From: an uncultured Alphaproteobacteria bacterium
Lineage (GTDB): Bacteria > Pseudomonadota > Alphaproteobacteria > UBA11222
Direction of reading: 5' to 3'
DNA: 64,000 nt
Assembly: GCA_947085465.1 (NCBI GenBank)
Contig: CAMTWQ010000025.1
Location: forward strand, 7,691-71,690
The translations under genes were made by a program, and so were the position numbers. Below, in pieces: positions 4,245 to 29,415 of this stretch (positions are counted from its first letter, which is position 1; every line of letters begins with the position of its first letter). The notes under the pieces are model-generated. The model ran no database searches. It was not told the origin of the DNA and saw only the letters and a program-made list of their open reading frames with translations.

Positions 4245-4936
4245 TGCTCACTCTCCTTAAACTTGGCATGTGACCGCCACAAATCTGGCCGCCGCGTGCG
4301 CGTAATATCTTCGGCTGCCTGTTGCCGCCATTTGCGAATGGCGGCGTGATTGCCGGACAGCAGCACCGGCGGTATCTCATGCCCCTCCCAAACTGCGGGG
4401 CGGGTATAGTGGGGATACTCCAGCAATCCCTTCTCGAAACTTTCTTCCATCAATGCGGTTGCATCACCAACCACTCCAGGCAACAACCGCACCACCGCAT
4501 CAAGCAAGGCGATTGCGGCAGGCTCACCCCCCGACAGCACAAAATCGCCGAGCGAGACCTGCTCCGCCGCGCGCGCCATTAGCACCCGCTCGTCAACCCC
4601 CTCAAACCGGCCACACACCACGACCACGCCAGAACCCGCCGCCAATTCGCGCACCCGATCTTGAGTAAGCGGCGCACCACGCGGCGTCAGATAAAGTAAT
4701 GGCCTCGGCCCAGCTTCGCGCGCCCGAACATCATCAATAGCGGCTGCCAAGACATCTGGCCGCATCACCATGCCAGGGCCGCCACCTGCGGGGGTGTCGT
4801 CCACGGAGCGGTGTTTATCGCCCGCAAATGCGCGAATGTCCACCGTTTCCAGGCGCCAAAGCCCTGCTTGCAGCGCTTTTCCCGCCAAACTATAGCCTAG
4901 CGGCCCTGGAAACATCTCCGTAAACAGGGTCAGCAC
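4241..4936 (-). CDS. trmD: tRNA (guanine37-N1)-methyltransferase
   Basis: 231 aa. [11 protein letters not shown]...[17 protein letters not shown] motifs. 4-nt overlap with rplS. Confidence 0.92.
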
Positions 4937-4974
4937 TGTGGCGGTCCAGGTATTTGAGGACTTTTGCAGCGTGG

Positions 4975-5526
4975 CTACTCCTCTGGCATTAGCCCAGGCG
5001 GCGGGTTTACCCGGACGAACCCCTTGGCGTCACCCTTTCCCATTCTCACTTCAATTACCACTTCAAGATTAAACGGCAACATTACGTTTTGCGGCTTTCG
5101 CCCGGGTTCCGGCGTCAGCGCCACTTCGATCAAATCCCCCGCACCAAAATTATACACCCCGACGATTTCCCCATCGGGGCGCGGCCCGTCTTGCCACTGA
5201 ACTGCCAAGCCAATTAAATCAGCGTGATAGAATTCCTCATCTGCTGCCAATTCCGGCAAGGCGGATCGTGGGACGTGTAGGCTTACGCCCTTTAGCGCCT
5301 CTGCTGCGTCCCGATCCGTAATCCCGGAAAGCTTTGCGGCCACGCCATCCTTCAGCACCTGTGTTACTTTCAGGCTAAAGCGGCGCGCCCCATCTCCGGT
5401 TTCGACCGGACCAAACGCCCCAACATCTTCGGGGCGATCCGTAAAGCACTTGACCCGCACCAGACCCTGCACCCCATGAGCGCCGAGTATCGCGCCAATA
5501 CAGACCCGGTCTTGCAGGGGTTGCAA
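4975..5526 (-). CDS. rimM: Ribosome maturation factor RimM
   Basis: 183 aa. Starts [16 protein letters not shown]. Canonical position between rpsP and trmD. Confidence 0.88.
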
Positions 5527-5532
5527 GACTGC

Positions 5533-5967
5533 CTAACCTTCGGCTGACTCTGCCGCCTCTGGGGCCGCCTCTGGGGCCACTTCTGGGGCGGGCGCTGCGG
5601 CGGCTGCAGCGACTGCGGCGGCGGCCTTCGCGTCAGCCTCGGCCTTTTGCGCCACACGTTCCAGCGCCTTGGCCTTTGGCTTGCCTTGCTGCGGATTATT
5701 GCCGGCGTCTGGTTTTGCCATCAATCCCGCATCGCCCAGCATGCGCGCAACCCGATCCGTAGGGCATGCGCCAACACCAAGCCAATGAGTGATGCGCTCG
5801 TTCACCAGCTTCATGCGCTGCGCATGGTCCTTGGGCAGCAGCGGATTGAAAAAGCCGAGCTGCTCAATAAAGCGGCCATCACGCGGCGCGCGGGCATCTG
5901 CCACAACGATACGGTAAAATGGGCGTTTTTTTGCGCCGTGCCGGGCAAGGCGAATTTTAAGTGACAT
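5533..5967 (-). CDS. rpsP: 30S ribosomal protein S16 (with Ala/Pro-rich C-terminal tail)
   Basis: [27 protein letters not shown]-terminus. 144 aa. Confidence 0.95.
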
Positions 5968-6005: not shown

Positions 6006-7460
6006 TTAGCGTTTGAAGCCGGGAAAGCCAGGCGGCAGCGGCGGCATGCCGGCATTCGGCCCGCCAAGGCCCGGCAATGCGCCAGGTTTGAAACCCGGCG
6101 GCAATGCGGGCATTCCACCGCCGCCCATTCCGGTTAACCCGCCCAGCATGCTTTTCATGCCTTGCTTGCCGACCTTCTTCATCATATCGGCCATTTGCCG
6201 GTGCATTTTCAGCAGCCGGTTCACGTCCTGCACGCTGGTTCCGGAACCAGCGGCAATGCGTTTTTTTCGCGAGCCGCCAAGGATCTTTGGTTTGCGCCGT
6301 TCTAGTTGGGTCATGGAATGCACGATGGCCTCCTGACGCTTGAGCATTTTGTCATCCAAGCCTGCTGCGGACAATTGACTTTTCACCTTGCCGACCCCCG
6401 GCAACATGCCAAGCACCCCCTGCATCCCACCCATTCTACGCATTTGCGCCAATTGCTCCGCCAGGTCGTCGAGATCAAACTCGCCCTTTTGCATTTTTTT
6501 GGCGAGTTTTTCGGCCTTTTCGGCCTCGAAGCTCTCAGCGGCGCGCTCGACGAGGCCAACCACATCGCCCATGCCAAGAATCCGCCCAGCGATCCGCTCT
6601 GGATGAAAATCCTCCAGTTCTTCAAGCTTTTCGCCAACGCCAATGGCCTTGATCGGGCAACCGGTGATAGCGCGCATGGAAAGCGCCGCGCCGCCGCGCC
6701 CATCGCCATCCACGCGGGTCAGAATAATGCCGGTAAGCGGCGTGCGCGCATGAAAGCTTTGCGCCACATTCACAGCGTCCTGGCCGGTCAAGCTGTCGGC
6801 GACCAGCAAGCATTCATGGGGGTTGACGGCGGCGCGCACCGCCGCCACCTCGGCCATCAGCGCTTCGTCTATATGGGTGCGCCCGGCGGTATCGAGCATC
6901 ACCACGTCAAAGCCGCCCAGCCTGCCAGCCTCCATGGCGCGCTTGGCGATATCCACCGGCATTTGCCCAGCGACGATGGGCAGGGTGGCGACACCCGCCT
7001 GCACGCCCAGCACCTTCAATTGTTCCTGGGCGGCAGGCCGCTGCACATCCAGCGACGCCATCAGCACTTTTTTGCGGTCGCGCTTTTGCAGCCGCATAGC
7101 GAGTTTTGCGGTGGTTGTGGTTTTACCCGAACCTTGCAGGCCAACTATCAGCACCGGCACCGGCGCGGGCGCGTTAAGATCAATGCCCTGGGCCGTATCG
7201 CCCAGCATCGCCACAAGACTGTCGTGCACAATCTTGATCACCATCTGGCCCGGCGTGACCGATTTGACGACTTCGGCCCCAATGGCGCGCTCACGCACCC
7301 TGGCGATGAAATCGCGCGCCACCGGCAGCGCCACGTCGGCTTCCAGCAGCGCGCGGCGCACTTCGCGCATGGCGGCGTCCACATCCGCCTCACTCAGCGA
7401 CGCCTGTTTGCGCAGCGCATCGAAAATGCCGGATAGGCGCTCGGAAAGACTTTCAAACAT
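6006..7460 (-). CDS. ffh: Signal recognition particle protein Ffh
   Basis: 484 aa. GLQGSGKTTT P-loop, DTAGR, Met-rich M domain and Gly/Pro-rich tail. Confidence 0.95.
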   Translation of the reverse strand: MFESLSERLSGIFDALRKQASLSEADVDAAMREVRRALLEADVALPVARDFIARVRERAIGAEVVKSVTPGQMVIKIVHDSLVAMLGDTAQGIDLNAPAPVPVLIVGLQGSGKTTTTAKLAMRLQKRDRKKVLMASLDVQRPAAQEQLKVLGVQAGVATLPIVAGQMPVDIAKRAMEAGRLGGFDVVMLDTAGRTHIDEALMAEVAAVRAAVNPHECLLVADSLTGQDAVNVAQSFHARTPLTGIILTRVDGDGRGGAALSMRAITGCPIKAIGVGEKLEELEDFHPERIAGRILGMGDVVGLVERAAESFEAEKAEKLAKKMQKGEFDLDDLAEQLAQMRRMGGMQGVLGMLPGVGKVKSQLSAAGLDDKMLKRQEAIVHSMTQLERRKPKILGGSRKKRIAAGSGTSVQDVNRLLKMHRQMADMMKKVGKQGMKSMLGGLTGMGGGGMPALPPGFKPGALPGLGGPNAGMPPLPPGFPGFKR

Positions 7461-7620: not shown

Positions 7621-8133
7621 ATGTTCCCACCGAGCCTGATGGCGCTTGCTGGCCCAGTGGCGGCTATGCTGATTGCCCGCAACCAAACCGTTTCGGTAGC
7701 AGAATCGTCCTGTGGCGGGCTGATTTCAGCGGCGCTGGTGGCTGTTCCTGGCGCCTCTGCCTATTATATTGGCGGCGGGATTGTGTACACGGCCCAGGGC
7801 GGCAGGGCGTTGCTGCCAGAACGGCCAAAAGGGATGAAATCCGCCACCCAGGATTTCGCCCTGTTCGAAGCGCGCAGCATCCGTGAAAAGATGGGTAGCA
7901 CCTGGGGCATCGGCGAAACAGGCGCCAGCGGGCCAAGCGGCAATCCCTATGGCAACCCGCCGGGCCATGCCTGTATCGCCATTAGCGGGCCACCCTCGGC
8001 GCTAGCGCCGGCACAGAGAATCGAGCGGGTGATCACCCTGGCCACGGGAAATTCTGACCGGGAAGCCAATATGTGGGTGTTTAGCGCCGCCGCCCTTGAT
8101 CTGCTGGTCAAGGCGCTCAGTGAGACGCCGTAG
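7621..8133 (+). CDS. CinA-family / PncC-like nicotinamide-nucleotide amidohydrolase domain protein
   Basis: 170 aa. TVSVAESSCGGLISAAL...YYIGGGIVYT resembles the CinA C-terminal domain signature. Confidence 0.7.
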   Translation: MFPPSLMALAGPVAAMLIARNQTVSVAESSCGGLISAALVAVPGASAYYIGGGIVYTAQGGRALLPERPKGMKSATQDFALFEARSIREKMGSTWGIGETGASGPSGNPYGNPPGHACIAISGPPSALAPAQRIERVITLATGNSDREANMWVFSAAALDLLVKALSETP

Positions 8134-8139
8134 GCGCCG

Positions 8140-9288
8140 ATGCGGGTGTTACATATCATTACCGGGCTTGGGGTTGGCGGCGCGGAAACCATGCTGCGCA
8201 AGCTGCTCGCCACACAAGCGCGCGAGCAAGTTGCAAGCCATGTCATAGCGCTGCGCGATGGGCCAATAGCAGCAGAAATTAGAGCGCTTGGCGTTGCGGT
8301 GGAGATCATAGAATTTACGGGCGCCCGCCACGCGCCGGCCGCGATGTTACGCCTCATACGCGCGATCCGCGCCATTGCGCCGGATCTGGTGCAGACCTGG
8401 ATGTATCACGGCGATCTGATTGGCGGGCTGGCGGCGAAGCTGGCCCGGCCAAGAACACCCGTTATATGGAATATACGATTGAGCGAGATCGATCCGGCCT
8501 ATGTGGGAAAGGCGACCCGCGCCGTGATACGCGCCTCTGCGTTGCTCTCGCATGTCATTCCAGAGGCGATTATTGTCAATGCGGATAAGGCGCGTCACAG
8601 CCACAGTGCGCTTGGCTATGCGGCGAAGAAATTCGTTCTTATCCCGAACGGCTTTGACACAGAAAAATTCCGCCCTGACAACGGTGCGCGCACGGCGTTT
8701 CGCGACATGCTTGGCATTCGCCAGGAAGCATTGGTGATCGGTATCGCCGGGCGGTTTGATCCACAGAAAGACTATGCGAATTTCTTCGCCGCAGGCCGTG
8801 AGGTTTGCGCGGCGCGCCCCGATGCGGTGCTGCTCGCCTGCGGCGAGGGGGTAAGCGCCAGCAATCCGCAACTGCTGCAAATGACTGACGGGTTCACCAC
8901 GGCGCAACTGCGTTTGCTGGGCCGGCGCAGCGATATGCCGCAGTTCTGGGCGGCGCTCGACATAGCCGTCTCAAGTTCGATAGGCGAGGGTTTTTCCAAC
9001 GCTATCGGCGAAGCCATGTGCGCAGGCGTCCCCTGTGTGGTGACGGATGTGGGCGATTCGGCGCGGATCGTCAGCGATACGGGCCGCGCCGTGCCGGCAA
9101 GGGATAGCCAAGCGCTCGCCCAGGCGATTTTGGCGCTGGCGGATATGCCGGCAACGGAGCGCCAGACGCTGGGCGCACTCGCCAGGGCGCATATGGTTGA
9201 GCACTATGGTTTACCCGCCGCCGCAGAGGGATTTTTCCATTTGTGGCAAGACGTGCTATCAGACAGATCGCGCGGCGGTAAGGATTGA
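8140..9288 (+). CDS. Glycosyltransferase, GT4-like (GT-B fold)
   Basis: 382 aa. MRVLHIITGLGVGGAE N-terminus and the EGFSNAIGEAMCAGVPCVVTDVG C-terminal motif. Confidence 0.85.
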   Translation: MRVLHIITGLGVGGAETMLRKLLATQAREQVASHVIALRDGPIAAEIRALGVAVEIIEFTGARHAPAAMLRLIRAIRAIAPDLVQTWMYHGDLIGGLAAKLARPRTPVIWNIRLSEIDPAYVGKATRAVIRASALLSHVIPEAIIVNADKARHSHSALGYAAKKFVLIPNGFDTEKFRPDNGARTAFRDMLGIRQEALVIGIAGRFDPQKDYANFFAAGREVCAARPDAVLLACGEGVSASNPQLLQMTDGFTTAQLRLLGRRSDMPQFWAALDIAVSSSIGEGFSNAIGEAMCAGVPCVVTDVGDSARIVSDTGRAVPARDSQALAQAILALADMPATERQTLGALARAHMVEHYGLPAAAEGFFHLWQDVLSDRSRGGKD

Positions 9289-26774: not shown

Positions 26775-26851
26775 CGGAGTGTAGCTCAGCCTGGTAGAGC
26801 ACTGCCTTCGGGAGGCAGGGGCCGCAGGTTCAATTCCTGCCACTCCGACCA
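26775..26851 (+). tRNA. tRNA-Pro (anticodon CGG)
   Basis: CGGAGTGTAGCTCAGCCTGGTAGAGCACTGCCTTCGGGAGGCAGGGGCCGCAGGTTCAATTCCTGCCACTCCGACCA. The acceptor CGGAGTG pairs with CACTCCG. Anticodon loop is CUUCGGGAG. It has a GGTTCAATTCC T-arm and an encoded CCA. Confidence 0.9.
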
Positions 26852-26936
26852 CCCTTCGCCCTGCGGGCTTCGGGTGGCTTACGCCGCTTGGCGTAAGACG
26901 CACGGAACCGCACCTTGGGCGTAGGAGGGCTGGAGA
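26845..26936 (+). repeat. 92-bp direct repeat A (starts in the tRNA-Pro 3' acceptor end)
   Basis: ccgaccacccttcgccctgcgggcttcgggtggcttacgccgcttggcgtaagacgcacggaaccgcaccttgggcg... is repeated at 29181-29272 with only 3 mismatches, all near the 3' end. Confidence 0.92.
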
Positions 26937-27183: not shown

Positions 27184-27220
27184 TGAAAATTTCAAGGCGT
27201 TGTATTTATTATAATTCAAA

Positions 27221-27276
27221 GGTTCAAATCCTCTGAGGTCGACCACCCTACGCCTTCGGCTTCGGGTTACTGGCTT
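27221..27276 (+). repeat. tRNA 3'-end-like stub plus a degenerate copy of the att-like repeat
   Basis: ggttcaaatcctctgaggtcgacca looks like a T-loop, 3' acceptor strand and CCA. It is followed by ccctacgccttcggcttcgggttactggctt, which is related to the start of repeats A and B. Confidence 0.6.
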
Positions 27277-27284
27277 TAAGCTGA

Positions 27285-27767
27285 TTAATCGCACCACGTA
27301 CGGCGGTAACCGGGGCTATTTATCAGATACATATAATTCATGCTTTCTTTGTGGTCGGTTGGGCCGCTTTGTTTTATAAACGCGCGCTGTTCTTCTCCTG
27401 TATATTCCACGTCCGCAGGGTCGCCAATTTTGTAAAGGAAAGGAAAATAGCCTTCTCCGGAAATCCAGCGCCAGCCCGATACATACTGATCGTTCCACAC
27501 AACCCCATCAATATCCGGCTGCACCACAATATCGCCCTGACTGTTTTTAAGCGCTATCTTCTTTTCAAACCATTGCGTCGCGACAAGACGTGTACCATTG
27601 GGCAGTTGCACACAGCGATATTGGTCATAAAAAATACCGTACGGCACGTACAAGACGGCAAGCGTAAAAAAAGCCGTGCAGACGGTCATATACCATCGCA
27701 ACAGACGGCGAAGCGTATTTCGCGCCATGCGCAGCATCAGGCTCATTATACCAGCTTTCATTTTCAT
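27285..27767 (-). CDS. Membrane-anchored small protein (160 aa); candidate immunity partner of the MuF-domain protein
   Basis: N-terminal basic stretch and one TM helix (MTVCTAFFTLAVLYVPYGIFY), then about 110 soluble residues. It lies downstream and co-directional with 27943-28968. Its ATG directly abuts a remnant of a toxin-like 3' end. Confidence 0.55.
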   Translation of the reverse strand: MKMKAGIMSLMLRMARNTLRRLLRWYMTVCTAFFTLAVLYVPYGIFYDQYRCVQLPNGTRLVATQWFEKKIALKNSQGDIVVQPDIDGVVWNDQYVSGWRWISGEGYFPFLYKIGDPADVEYTGEEQRAFIKQSGPTDHKESMNYMYLINSPGYRRTWCD

Positions 27768-27836
27768 TCAGCCTGCCTCCACATGCAATTCTATCCGCCC
27801 CTGGCCAGCGCCATTCGGCAATTACACAAAATGACG

Positions 27837-27983
27837 TTAGAGCAAAAAATTAAGGTACAGCAGGTACAGAGCGGCAAGCGTACAAAAAGCCGTGCAAACG
27901 ATCCTGTACCATCGCCACATCCAGCGAAGCGCAGCCCGCAGCTTACCTGGAAACAGGCTTTTTATACCGGCTCTCATTTTCAT
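27837..27983 (-). pseudogene. Truncated 48-codon paralog of the N-terminus of the 160-aa protein
   Basis: Hand translation gives MKMRAGIKSLFPGKLRAALRWMWRWYRIVCTAFCTLAALYLLYLNFLL*, compared with MKMKAGIMSLMLRMARNTLRRLLRWYMTVCTAFFTLAVLYVPYG. It overlaps the last 41 nt of the MuF-domain gene in another frame. It is below the size cut-off of the ORF track. Confidence 0.5.
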
Positions 27984-28968
27984 TCAGTTTTGCCTCCGCA
28001 TGCAGTTCTGTCTGCCACTGACCGGTGATGGCGTACACCTTGCCGCCGCCATCGGTGATGAACCGCAAAATCTCTGAAACCGCTTCCACGCTGGGCGTGT
28101 CTGGCAAATATTGAGCGATAATTGCCGTAATGCGCCGCAGAATTTCTGGAACCGAATCCGCGTCGGATATCTCGCGCAAATATCGCCTTATATCTTCCGT
28201 GATGCGCCGCAAAATTTCTGCGGCTTTTGCAGGATCGGACGTGCCAAAAATTAATCTATCCCTGATACGTGCCGGGTCGGTATAGGCATCATCAAAGAAA
28301 TATGCGACCGCCCCGTCAATCTTCATCAAGCCATTTTTCTCTGAAACATATCCCTTAAATATACCAGACACAGTGGACCCACCGTGCGGGTATGCGACGG
28401 CTGTAAAATCGTAGCTTATGGAAAATTCGTAGGGAAAATAGCCATTGCCCACCGCTCGCGCCGCATGAATAACTTGTCTGTTGACCTCTTCAAATATTCC
28501 GGCGTCTCCCAGATGATAGGCATAGTGGTTGATGATATCCTGCAAATGGCCAATCCCGGACAACGTCACATCGCCCCCACCCTTAAACGCATGCTCTACG
28601 AAATCCTGTTTTTTCCATTTCGGGCTTGAATCATTCACTTCGCTGGTAAGCGTCTGATTGGCGAATTCGCTCTCGTTACGCACATAGGGTTCTGCTGTGC
28701 ACCGGCAACCATAATCCTCGCCGGGATGCCGCGTCGGCGGTGGGTTATCCCATGCGAACACTTTTCCATTATTTGCCGCATGCGAGGCGCGCACTTTGTT
28801 ATCGCCCCGCGTGCGCCAAATGTAGTGCGTAGTTGGATGTTCCTGCGCTGATGCCTTCTGTTCTTGTGCCGCCGCCTTCAACGACAGTTCAATGGGTACG
28901 CCTTTCCTGAGATACAGATTGAATGCCTTTTTATAGGCTGGGGTATGGATGATATCCGGGAGAGACAT
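27943..28968 (-). CDS. MuF / SPP1 gp7 head-morphogenesis-domain protein with an unrecognised C-terminal region (candidate polymorphic toxin)
   Basis: Residues about 48-95, YIWRTRGDNKVRASHAANNGKVFAWDNPPPTRHPGEDYGCRCTAEP, match the remembered Phage_Mu_F core (W.T..D.rVR.sH..l.G......p...PG....CRC). Residues 100-341 match no family I know and contain three EILR(R/F)IT repeats. Confidence 0.7.
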   Translation of the reverse strand: MSLPDIIHTPAYKKAFNLYLRKGVPIELSLKAAAQEQKASAQEHPTTHYIWRTRGDNKVRASHAANNGKVFAWDNPPPTRHPGEDYGCRCTAEPYVRNESEFANQTLTSEVNDSSPKWKKQDFVEHAFKGGGDVTLSGIGHLQDIINHYAYHLGDAGIFEEVNRQVIHAARAVGNGYFPYEFSISYDFTAVAYPHGGSTVSGIFKGYVSEKNGLMKIDGAVAYFFDDAYTDPARIRDRLIFGTSDPAKAAEILRRITEDIRRYLREISDADSVPEILRRITAIIAQYLPDTPSVEAVSEILRFITDGGGKVYAITGQWQTELHAEAKLNENESRYKKPVSR

Positions 28969-29180
28969 GGCAACTCCTAAAAGGGCGTAAAGCGAATTTG
29001 CTTTATATCAAAACCCAACCCTTTTGTAAAGAACAAAAAGAGAACATGATAAACCATAGGACTATTGGCATGGTCCTGCCCCCCCCATCCACCAGGCGGC
29101 TCTTTTTATCAACCCATTGTATGACATGGATAAAACGATTAGCCGTATATCGGGGCGGGTTCTGAACCCGTCCACCAGGG

Positions 29181-29272
29181 CCGACCACCCTTCGCCCTGC
29201 GGGCTTCGGGTGGCTTACGCCGCTTGGCGTAAGACGCACGGAACCGCACCTTGGGCGAAGGAGTGCTGGAGA
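29181..29272 (+). repeat. 92-bp direct repeat B (partner of 26845-26936)
   Basis: Preceded at 29155-29180 by a T-arm-like stub (gcgggttctgaacccgtccaccagg). Identical to repeat A over the first 77 nt. Confidence 0.92.
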
Positions 29273-29415
29273 GACCGCCTACGGGCTTCGGGTGGCGACG
29301 CCGTAGCGTGCGAAGCCAGAGCGTATCAGAGGCGAATAGTGCAATCCGCAAAATTTTAATAAGTGATAGGATAAACTCCCGCTGATTCGGTTCCGCTGAA
29401 CGAGTGGTGTTTGTG

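Follow-up and report, generated by a model that had tools for sequence, protein, structure and literature searches.

The 64,000-nt stretch of DNA examined here (the window), from an uncultured alphaproteobacterium (GenBank contig CAMTWQ010000025.1), carries a horizontally acquired two-gene cassette next to a tRNA-Pro gene. Gene 1 joins an N-terminal motif, a MuF/SPP1-gp7 core and a domain predicted to be a divergent relative of colicin M (ColM). Gene 2 encodes a putative immunity protein with a membrane anchor. On balance we favor the interpretation that the two genes form a toxin-immunity pair, and that the toxin is loaded in trans into the heads of phages or gene transfer agents (GTAs) and ejected into the periplasm of the recipient. 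Family loci are cited below by L numbers and family proteins by P numbers.

A preliminary description of this DNA had proposed a polymorphic toxin made of a MuF domain and an unrecognised C-terminal module, with its immunity protein encoded by the next gene. An open reading frame (ORF) scan returned genes of 341 and 160 amino acids (aa) exactly where that description placed them (Table 1). The PF04233 search that it proposed showed that the MuF core is real. Residues 32–92 match at 53.7 bits against a cut-off of 29.6, covering model positions 50–111 of 112; the core quoted earlier corresponds to residues 49–94. TIGR01641 of NCBIfam matches at 49.8 bits (cut-off 39.65), as do several PHROG head-morphogenesis families. 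PF04233 matches all 115 aligned family members, in which Y49, W51, D56, R60 and C88-R-C90 are conserved, and the core and the N-terminal motif are the most conserved parts of the protein. The ratio of nonsynonymous to synonymous substitution (dN/dS) of the toxin gene is 0.10–0.14 in comparisons with L005, L001 and L004, indicating purifying selection. The fusion protein has no signal peptide and no receptor domain.

The C-terminal domain is indeed missed by sequence-family libraries, since searches of Pfam, NCBIfam and PHROGs matched the MuF core and no toxin family in this domain, but it appears to have a relative at the level of fold. AlphaFold2 (AF2) models of the full-length protein and of residues 106–341 alone have predicted local distance difference test (pLDDT) values of 88.2 and 87.8, respectively. 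When compared with 350,542 Protein Data Bank (PDB) chains using Foldseek, the sole matches of meaningful probability were lipid-II-degrading bacteriocins of the ColM family. Pectocin M1 was found at E 1.1e-3 (probability 0.98) and syringacin M at E 5e-3 (probability 1.00, TM-score 0.38, root-mean-square deviation 7.3 Å). Pectocin M2 was also returned, and colicin M at a probability of 0.25–0.33; all remaining PDB matches were at about 0.13 or below. Foldseek comparison with the viral structures of BFVD yielded nothing credible. Profile alignment with hhalign gave P 0.0068 for the family against colicin M alone and P 0.0016–0.0019 against a seven-member ColM profile, the latter colinear over positions 12–137 of the 150 in the ColM catalytic domain. 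Residues conserved in the family domain are W118, H126, G202xFxG206, D227xYxD231, R236, GGGxxY312xI (with the GGG309 run) and W318. The invariant ones are aligned with ColM counterparts as follows: H126 with H135, G202xFxG206 with G193xYxG197, and GGxxY312xI with GKEY255QI. These results suggest that the domain is probably homologous to the ColM catalytic domain; for the predicted lipid-II-type activity we judge the chances to be even.

The domain is interrupted by a helical insert, which was modelled as three helices (pLDDT 59–87). Only the window protein and its closest relatives (P0001–P0004) have the insert; most homologues, at 270–295 aa, are without it. It has a weak sequence resemblance to designed helical repeat proteins. 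Matches to such proteins and to syntaxin in a PDB sequence search align to the 24-aa repeat region and were judged spurious. A C-terminus that varies beyond residue 235 was also considered and rejected; tblastn matches break after residue 235 because of the variable insert.

The 160-aa partner has a strongly basic N-terminus followed by one hydrophobic helix (residues ~25–47), so the single transmembrane (TM) helix described previously stands. Its cysteines are C52, in CVQLPNG, and C159. No match was found in Pfam, NCBIfam or PHROGs. The protein is 81% identical to the partner in L005 and 46–49% identical to those in L004 and L011, with many weaker matches elsewhere. Its dN/dS, 0.71 against L005 and 0.27 against L004, shows that it evolves faster than the toxin gene. 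To score the association, a partner was defined as an ORF of 100–300 aa that starts between −60 and +500 nt from the toxin stop and has one or more predicted TM helices. Such a membrane-protein ORF abuts the toxin 3′ end in 75/90 family loci versus 100/426 control genes (23%; binomial p 5e-33, for loci that are phylogenetically non-independent). Start/stop overlaps of 4–8 nt between toxin and partner are common in the family.

The partners fall into three families without detectable mutual sequence similarity. Family I, the largest, includes the window's partner and is found in 45 loci; in many genomes the gene for this partner accompanies the MuF gene. Members of family I are co-directional with the toxin and 136–240 aa long. 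They carry an N-terminal anchor, a CVxLPNG motif beyond the helix and also a C-terminal cysteine, and a 4-nt overlap with the MuF stop is frequent. Family II (21 loci) is convergent with 3–4 TM helices, and family III (3 loci) is co-directional with 5–6. None of the three has a Pfam match, and family I has no PDB sequence match either.

This arrangement resembles that of ColM bacteriocins, whose immunity proteins are encoded by adjacent genes, either upstream and convergent or downstream, and reside in the cytoplasmic membrane with several unrelated topologies (Ghequire et al. 2018, PMC5821083). Cmi and PmiB/BmiB have a single anchor and a periplasmic domain with two cysteines, whereas PmiA has four and BmiA three TM helices (PMC5821083). 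The single-anchor type with two conserved cysteines recurs among the partners studied here; the agreement with ColM-type adjacent membrane immunity is one of topology and synteny. The ColM family also supplies the sole confident structural neighbours of the toxin and colinear motif matches. Unlike the ColM family, the fusion proteins have no PF14859 match, an altered catalytic motif and, in the window, a helical repeat insert; a phage head module takes the place of the TonB-box and receptor-binding domains at the N-terminus; and the family is restricted to Alphaproteobacteria. A recent study describes a novel colicin-M-like toxin domain whose immunity proteins are BamE-like and anchored in the membrane (Burroughs et al. 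2025, bioRxiv 10.1101/2025.01.14.632903). That system is similar in pairing a divergent ColM-fold toxin with a fast-evolving, membrane-anchored periplasmic immunity protein, and differs in that its toxins have lipobox/cystatin-like N-termini where the fusion has MuF.

Partners have been exchanged where the toxin gene ends (3′). There, a partial copy of the partner 5′ end, a 177-nt repeat with 73% identity, overlaps the MuF stop codon, and L005 has the same remnant. L001, whose MuF protein is 89% identical to that of the window, diverges exactly at the remnant and continues into an unrelated 188-aa gene with six TM helices. Partner replacement has thus taken place by recombination. Three paralogous pairs occur in one metagenome-assembled genome (MAG; L009, L014 and L025). 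L005 has an additional insertion of ~190 nt with inverted-repeat character (~7800–7990) between the truncated remnant and the full partner gene. It is absent from the window and is possibly a miniature inverted-repeat transposable element (MITE).

To define the extent of the family, a word-index search was carried out and returned 319 full-length homologues, most of them 270–295 aa long and 40–60% identical to the query. Where named, they are annotated 'phage minor head protein'. An exhaustive search with residues 106–341 only yielded 272 clusters at 50% identity. MuF is kept in every long variant tested among these matches; short matches that would represent C-terminal domains without MuF look like truncated gene calls and were set aside. 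Because the same domain accompanies MuF across all clusters, the C-terminus is not polymorphic and the protein is a fixed fusion. Variation within the family lies in the partner and the helical insert. The preliminary proposal of a polymorphic C-terminus is thus contradicted by this survey of related genomes. A toxin-immunity pair is nevertheless the best fit to the ColM-like fold and the co-occurring partner, though not one that is polymorphic in the defining sense.

MuF polymorphic toxins (Jamet et al. 2017, PMC5576092) are the obvious comparison. The fusion shares with them a PF04233 core that is extended at its C-terminal side by over 100 aa (~245 aa here), a small downstream gene without a known domain, and relatives in prophage head modules; many proteobacterial MuF proteins with unknown C-terminal extensions had already been noted (PMC5576092). 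In contrast to those toxins, the window copy and most of the family lie outside prophages, and GTA clusters house some copies. The C-terminal domain is fixed rather than polymorphic, the match to the MuF model is confined to its C-terminal half, and the effector is ColM-like, the phrase 'colicin M' being absent from that paper. The partner is a periplasm-facing membrane protein, whereas the immunity protein of MuF toxins is cytosolic (PMC5576092).

All 80 genome loci are alphaproteobacterial. The carriers include Phyllobacterium, Rhodobium, Methyloligella, many Rhodobacterales, Parvibaculales and Rickettsiales-labelled MAGs; among them are the cultured Rhodobium orientis DSM 11290, Methyloligella sp. 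GL2 and Cereibacter ovatus, besides Phyllobacterium species. When the full protein was compared with 50,697 phage genomes, the MuF core alone was matched (295 phage records, residues 45–103), which indicates that the fusion is not in sequenced phages. Nor did the 45-aa N-terminus match any phage by tblastn. 16 IMG/VR contigs carry family members.

Many copies of the family are orphan pairs in unrelated housekeeping sites: between lpxC and ftsZ, after recN, after genes for SMC, aconitase, YchF or CcmH, and among acyl-CoA dehydrogenase genes. The pair directly follows recN in five Phyllobacterium genomes (L017, L027, L030, L031 and L039), and in an unrelated MAG (L003/L022) it lies between lpxC and ftsZ, with recN, bamD and ligA next to it. 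Such placement suggests an ancient insertion site retained by vertical descent or, alternatively, preferential targeting close to the cell-division cluster.

Other copies are found among phage genes. In L094 the pair follows genes for a lambda-type terminase, portal, S49 protease and DUF6441 protein, the head module of a Rhodobacterales prophage. In L095 (Cereibacter ovatus) it begins 79 nt after a tyrosine integrase gene and is near a GpA terminase gene. By BLAST, 18 loci have DUF6441 homologues and 11 have integrase homologues. Where gene order was read, the DUF6441 gene immediately precedes the MuF gene (e.g. L094), and an integrase gene does so in L095, L074 and L085. Some Rhodobacterales loci with the DUF6441-MuF order (L064/L098, L078 and L097) have homologues of GTA g12 (DUF2460) and g15 a few kb downstream, with 52–63% identity; such prophages seem to pair a lambda-like head with a GTA-like baseplate. 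In L032, a Methylopilaceae MAG (4473–5867), a large terminase gene of the Terminase_6N/6C type lies ~130 nt upstream of the MuF-ColM-like gene. The terminase of the Rhodobacter capsulatus GTA (RcGTA) is of this type. The L032 context is incomplete, as the contig ends just past the gene.

Further copies are linked to RcGTA-type GTAs (Bardy et al. 2020, PMC7296036). In L169/L013, which encodes a protein 56% identical to that of the window, the MuF gene starts 8 nt inside the end of g15. This g15 encodes 1,316 aa with PF13547 (GTA_TIM), PF13550 and PF23666 (Rcc01698_C), and closes a complete RcGTA-type row of genes for connector, head-closure, tail-completion and major tail proteins, two chaperones, DUF2460, BR0599 and NlpC/P60. 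Downstream of the MuF gene are a 168-aa family I partner, then DUF2793 and Hydrolase_2. Overlap with g15 is seen in six genomes (L011, L013/L169, L014, L015, L019 and L023), which are mutually related, with g15 80–94% identical, and so represent essentially one lineage. The L014 MAG also holds an 89%-identical orphan copy (L009). The window's MFS–rpsD segment is 77–82% identical in nucleotide sequence to that of L169, so the two organisms are related. The delivery route, which the preliminary description left unexplained, is no longer wholly so given relatives in prophage head modules and overlapping g15.

These contexts also accommodate an accessory role in infection or transfer. An ejected head protein might locally remove or sequester lipid II or other wall precursors and so aid passage of DNA through the envelope, with the partner serving producer protection or superinfection exclusion. 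Support comes from a structural locus in which translation of the gene is coupled to that of the GTA baseplate gene g15 and DUF2793 and Hydrolase_2 come next; in addition, the fusion is under strong purifying selection, and RcGTA already has wall-degrading proteins and ejects its contents into the periplasm (PMC7296036). Most copies, however, are orphans among housekeeping genes, a genome may hold several paralogous pairs, and partners have been swapped, all of which is more like a toxin arsenal; and a MuF-type protein is not needed for GTA function, as the R. capsulatus GTA structure paper names none (PMC7296036). We regard this role as rather unlikely. Far less probable still is a lysis effector, in which the lipid-II-degrading protein would lyse the GTA or phage producer with the partner as a holin-like exporter or timer. 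The pair does end structural operons near a Hydrolase_2 gene and the partners are small membrane proteins, yet the strictly conserved fusion to a MuF head-protein core, the orphan copies far from particle genes and the large periplasmic domain of family I partners, with conserved cysteines unlike a holin, all argue otherwise.

The N-terminal motif may provide a second connection between the toxin and a particle. It is present in ~95 family members and elsewhere in 1/4,896 ORFs (L139, an apparent chance match). It resembles residues 64–92 of the RcGTA capsid protein Rcc01687, HQKAFAAYLRTGDDDGLRGLSLEGKALNS, including residues 65–75, and a profile of the motif ranked the RcGTA capsid segment QKAFAAYLRTG second and third among 177,635 PDB sequences (E 0.26). 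We take the Rcc01687 segment to lie just upstream of the prohead-protease cleavage site of HK97-type capsids. If so, the motif might serve as a signal for capsid targeting or for processing; as a candidate it is a lead and no more. Between motif and core, the linker (28830–28865, residues ~35–46) reads AAQEQKASAQEH in the window and AAQEH in the close relatives P0001 and P0002. The 7-aa insertion (EQKASAQ), apparently a small duplication, explains why the protein has 341 rather than 334 aa. A minority of members from the 272-cluster search (P0158, P0221 and P0246) have 90–140 additional N-terminal residues. P0221 and P0246 have fuller coverage of the MuF model (positions 21–111 of 112), and P0158 and P0221, the two read in sequence, are without the YRKAFxxYLRxG motif. 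These extended members may be the ancestral phage-type form.

Conservation of the N-terminus also bears on whether the protein is a diffusible bacteriocin of the colicin M type, freed by leakage or lysis, with its MuF-derived N-terminus re-purposed for receptor binding and import. Colicin M and the fusion protein alike lack a signal peptide, and Cmi, which confers immunity to colicin M, is a periplasmic protein with an anchor in the cytoplasmic membrane (PMC5821083); moreover, the family is present in genomes without nearby phage genes. Receptor and translocation domains of bacteriocins are usually their most variable parts, whereas here the N-terminal region is the most conserved, and no consistent TonB-box-like motif was seen in the aligned N-termini. 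Since recurrent linkage to head and GTA genes would also be left without explanation, we consider a diffusible bacteriocin improbable.

In the toxin-immunity interpretation, the ColM-like domain would act in the periplasm, cleaving lipid II or a related wall precursor that is linked to polyprenyl pyrophosphate. The gene 2 protein, with its predicted cytoplasmic basic N-terminus, TM helix and periplasmic domain containing two cysteines, would protect the producer and its kin in that compartment in the manner of Cmi and PmiB/BmiB. The toxin may be packaged into phage or GTA heads via its MuF module, perhaps aided by the capsid-like N-terminal motif, and orphan copies such as the window's would be packaged in trans. 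It would then be ejected with DNA into the recipient periplasm and be neutralized by the membrane partner in kin. The absence of a signal peptide or receptor domain, the relatives in prophage head modules and the translational coupling to g15 suggest packaging. The contents of RcGTA particles are released into the periplasm of the recipient (PMC7296036), which would suit the site of action of a ColM-type enzyme. The periplasm is both the compartment of ColM-type enzymes and the side of the membrane faced by the partner.

Several observations weigh against this interpretation. The relationship to colicin M rests on the predicted fold plus weak profile signals: ColM-family matches have TM-scores of 0.30–0.38 at Foldseek E-values of 1e-3 to 1e-2, although TM-scores below 0.4 arise partly because the targets have ~120 extra N-terminal residues and the query a 60-residue insert. 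The hhalign probability is only 6–16% (14–16% with the seven-member profile), Pfam Colicin_M (PF14859) matched 0/115 members at E≤10, and a PDB profile search with the family alignment did not find colicin M or anything relevant. At sequence level, the ColM catalytic motif DxYDx5HR is only approximated, as D227-A-Y-T-D231-PARI-R236 in the window. The family consensus at this site is FxDx[FY]TDPxDIRE (DxYxDx4R). The capsid match of the N-terminal motif is not significant alone and is suggestive only. The toxins of the window and L001 are nearly identical while their partners are unrelated, which is unusual for immunity by specific toxin binding. Rickettsiales-labelled carriers include Ca. Cyrtobacter, and GTAs are not expected in this group. 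Finally, in contrast to the RcGTA locus, no GTA or phage gene was found within the 64-kb window, so packaging in trans is, for this copy, something we purely infer. The RcGTA structure paper (PMC7296036) names no MuF-type component.

The cassette lies in an islet at the 3′ end of the tRNA-Pro gene, bounded by direct repeats (Table 1). For ~9 kb on each side there are housekeeping genes only, ten in number: PPDK, GlyRS alpha, GlyRS beta, S49 peptidase, methyltransferase, polyprenyl synthase, acyl-CoA dehydrogenase, DinG-like helicase, TerB and MFS transporter. None of these ten encodes a portal, terminase, capsid protein or integrase. The GC content is 46–52% across 26.9–29.2 kb compared with 57–62% on either side. 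A tRNA-linked islet in housekeeping DNA and outside a prophage, as first described, is therefore borne out. The repeats, the GIY-YIG gene, the truncated partner duplicate and the 24-aa repeats are additional to that description.

Table 1. Features of the cassette and the islet (positions in the window; residues refer to the fusion protein)
Feature	Position	Strand	Remarks
tRNA-Pro(cgg)	26775-26851	+	insertion landmark
92-nt direct repeat, copy 1	26845-26936	+	begins in tRNA-Pro 3′ end
GIY-YIG nuclease-family gene, 80 aa	26941-27183	+	between tRNA-Pro and module; PF01541, 53.7 bits
tRNA-3′-end-like repeat (D3)	27220-27254	+	one end of MuF-partner module; conserved in L005
Partner gene, putative immunity protein, 160 aa	27285-27767	-	partner family I; N-terminal anchor, periplasm-facing
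Truncated duplicate of partner 5′ end	27837-27983	-	48-codon ORF keeping the TM helix
MuF/colicin-M-like fusion gene, putative toxin, 341 aa	27943-28968	-	ORF, PF04233
Colicin-M-like C-terminal domain, residues 106-341	27946-28653	-	
Helical insert, residues 246-305	28054-28233	-	3 x 24-aa tandem repeats (EILRRIT...); 72-nt repeats x3
MuF/SPP1-gp7 core, residues 32-92	28693-28875	-	C-terminal half of Pfam model only
N-terminal family motif, residues 8-33	28870-28947	-	TPAYKKAFNLYLRKGVPIELSLKAAA; consensus YRKAFxxYLRxGTPIxLSLK
tRNA-3′-end-like repeat	29156-29196	+	other end of MuF-partner module
92-nt direct repeat, copy 2	29181-29272	+	far edge of islet

Three tRNA-3′-end-like repeats, including the genuine tRNA end, split the islet into two units, the GIY-YIG gene and the MuF-partner module. 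The module (1.96 kb) corresponds to 27229–29190, the extent of homology to L005. It is found at 89–90% nucleotide identity in metagenomic contigs (L005–L008) with other chromosomal surroundings, where it adjoins a different tRNA-Pro (tgg), is flanked by two GIY-YIG units and has the same pseudo-tRNA ends. A tRNA gene lies within ~500 nt in seven of ~60 family loci. In L005 the GIY-YIG units (6162–6359 and 8937–9176) are inside 358-nt direct repeats of 89–90% (L005–L007). Cassettes might move by GIY-YIG-driven homing into tRNA flanks, a link confined to this subclade. GIY-YIG as a family-wide feature was rejected, as only the window and its closest relative show the association. ORF and Pfam scans of the islet detected no integrase of its own.

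The two copies of the 92-nt repeat that flank the islet are 98% identical. The repeat is predicted to form a long, very stable hairpin (−50.3 kcal/mol, z −3.85), and a third, partial copy of the hairpin core lies at 29278–29296. These repeats could be an element like a repetitive extragenic palindrome or MITE, or an extended tRNA terminator, instead of a simple att duplication. The tRNA was the sole match in an Rfam scan, and scans for CtrA boxes (TTAA-N7-TTAA), promoters and terminators gave no signal above chance near the islet.

The state of the locus raises the question of whether the cassette is a decaying prophage or GTA remnant, that is, a relic head-morphogenesis gene and a neighbouring ORF without present function. 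Integrase and structural genes are gone from the locus, the truncated gene copy and degenerate tRNA-end repeats record past rearrangement, and relatives carry the public annotation of a phage minor head protein. But both ORFs are intact, the MuF gene has the low dN/dS given above, the two-gene unit is kept across ~90 loci at unrelated chromosomal sites, and the module recurs by another tRNA in another genome. Decay is thus a poor account of the cassette and we hold it to be quite unlikely.

MuF toxins (PMC5576092), ColM polymorphic toxins (PMC5821083) and a divergent ColM-like domain with membrane-anchored immunity are already known. In the literature searched, no report was found of a MuF-ColM fusion or of its orphan chromosomal cassettes, and no link of GTAs to MuF proteins or polymorphic toxins surfaced in the part of the matching papers in view. 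MuF toxins have so far been known only as prophage-encoded proteins, with delivery unproven. The present family, which spans chromosomal orphans, prophages and GTA operons, joins a MuF core to a colicin-M-like domain predicted to act in the periplasm, and the relatives in prophages and at GTA cluster ends suggest a delivery route for orphan toxins. Even if the ColM-like assignment were wrong, there would still be a widespread, conserved two-gene mobile cassette that is now annotated 'phage minor head protein'. If it is right, the family would carry the colicin M superfamily into the Alphaproteobacteria and add to it a new delivery module as well as three candidate immunity families that are also new. 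More speculatively, and in our estimate somewhat unlikely, orphan MuF-ColM-like cassettes could be cargo of GTAs and related temperate siphophages, killing or penalizing recipients that do not have the cognate immunity, so that GTA particles would serve as kin-discriminating bacteriocin devices. This substantially new idea, if true, would provide the first toxin cargo proposed for GTAs and a concrete, testable reason why exchange by GTAs might be confined to kin.

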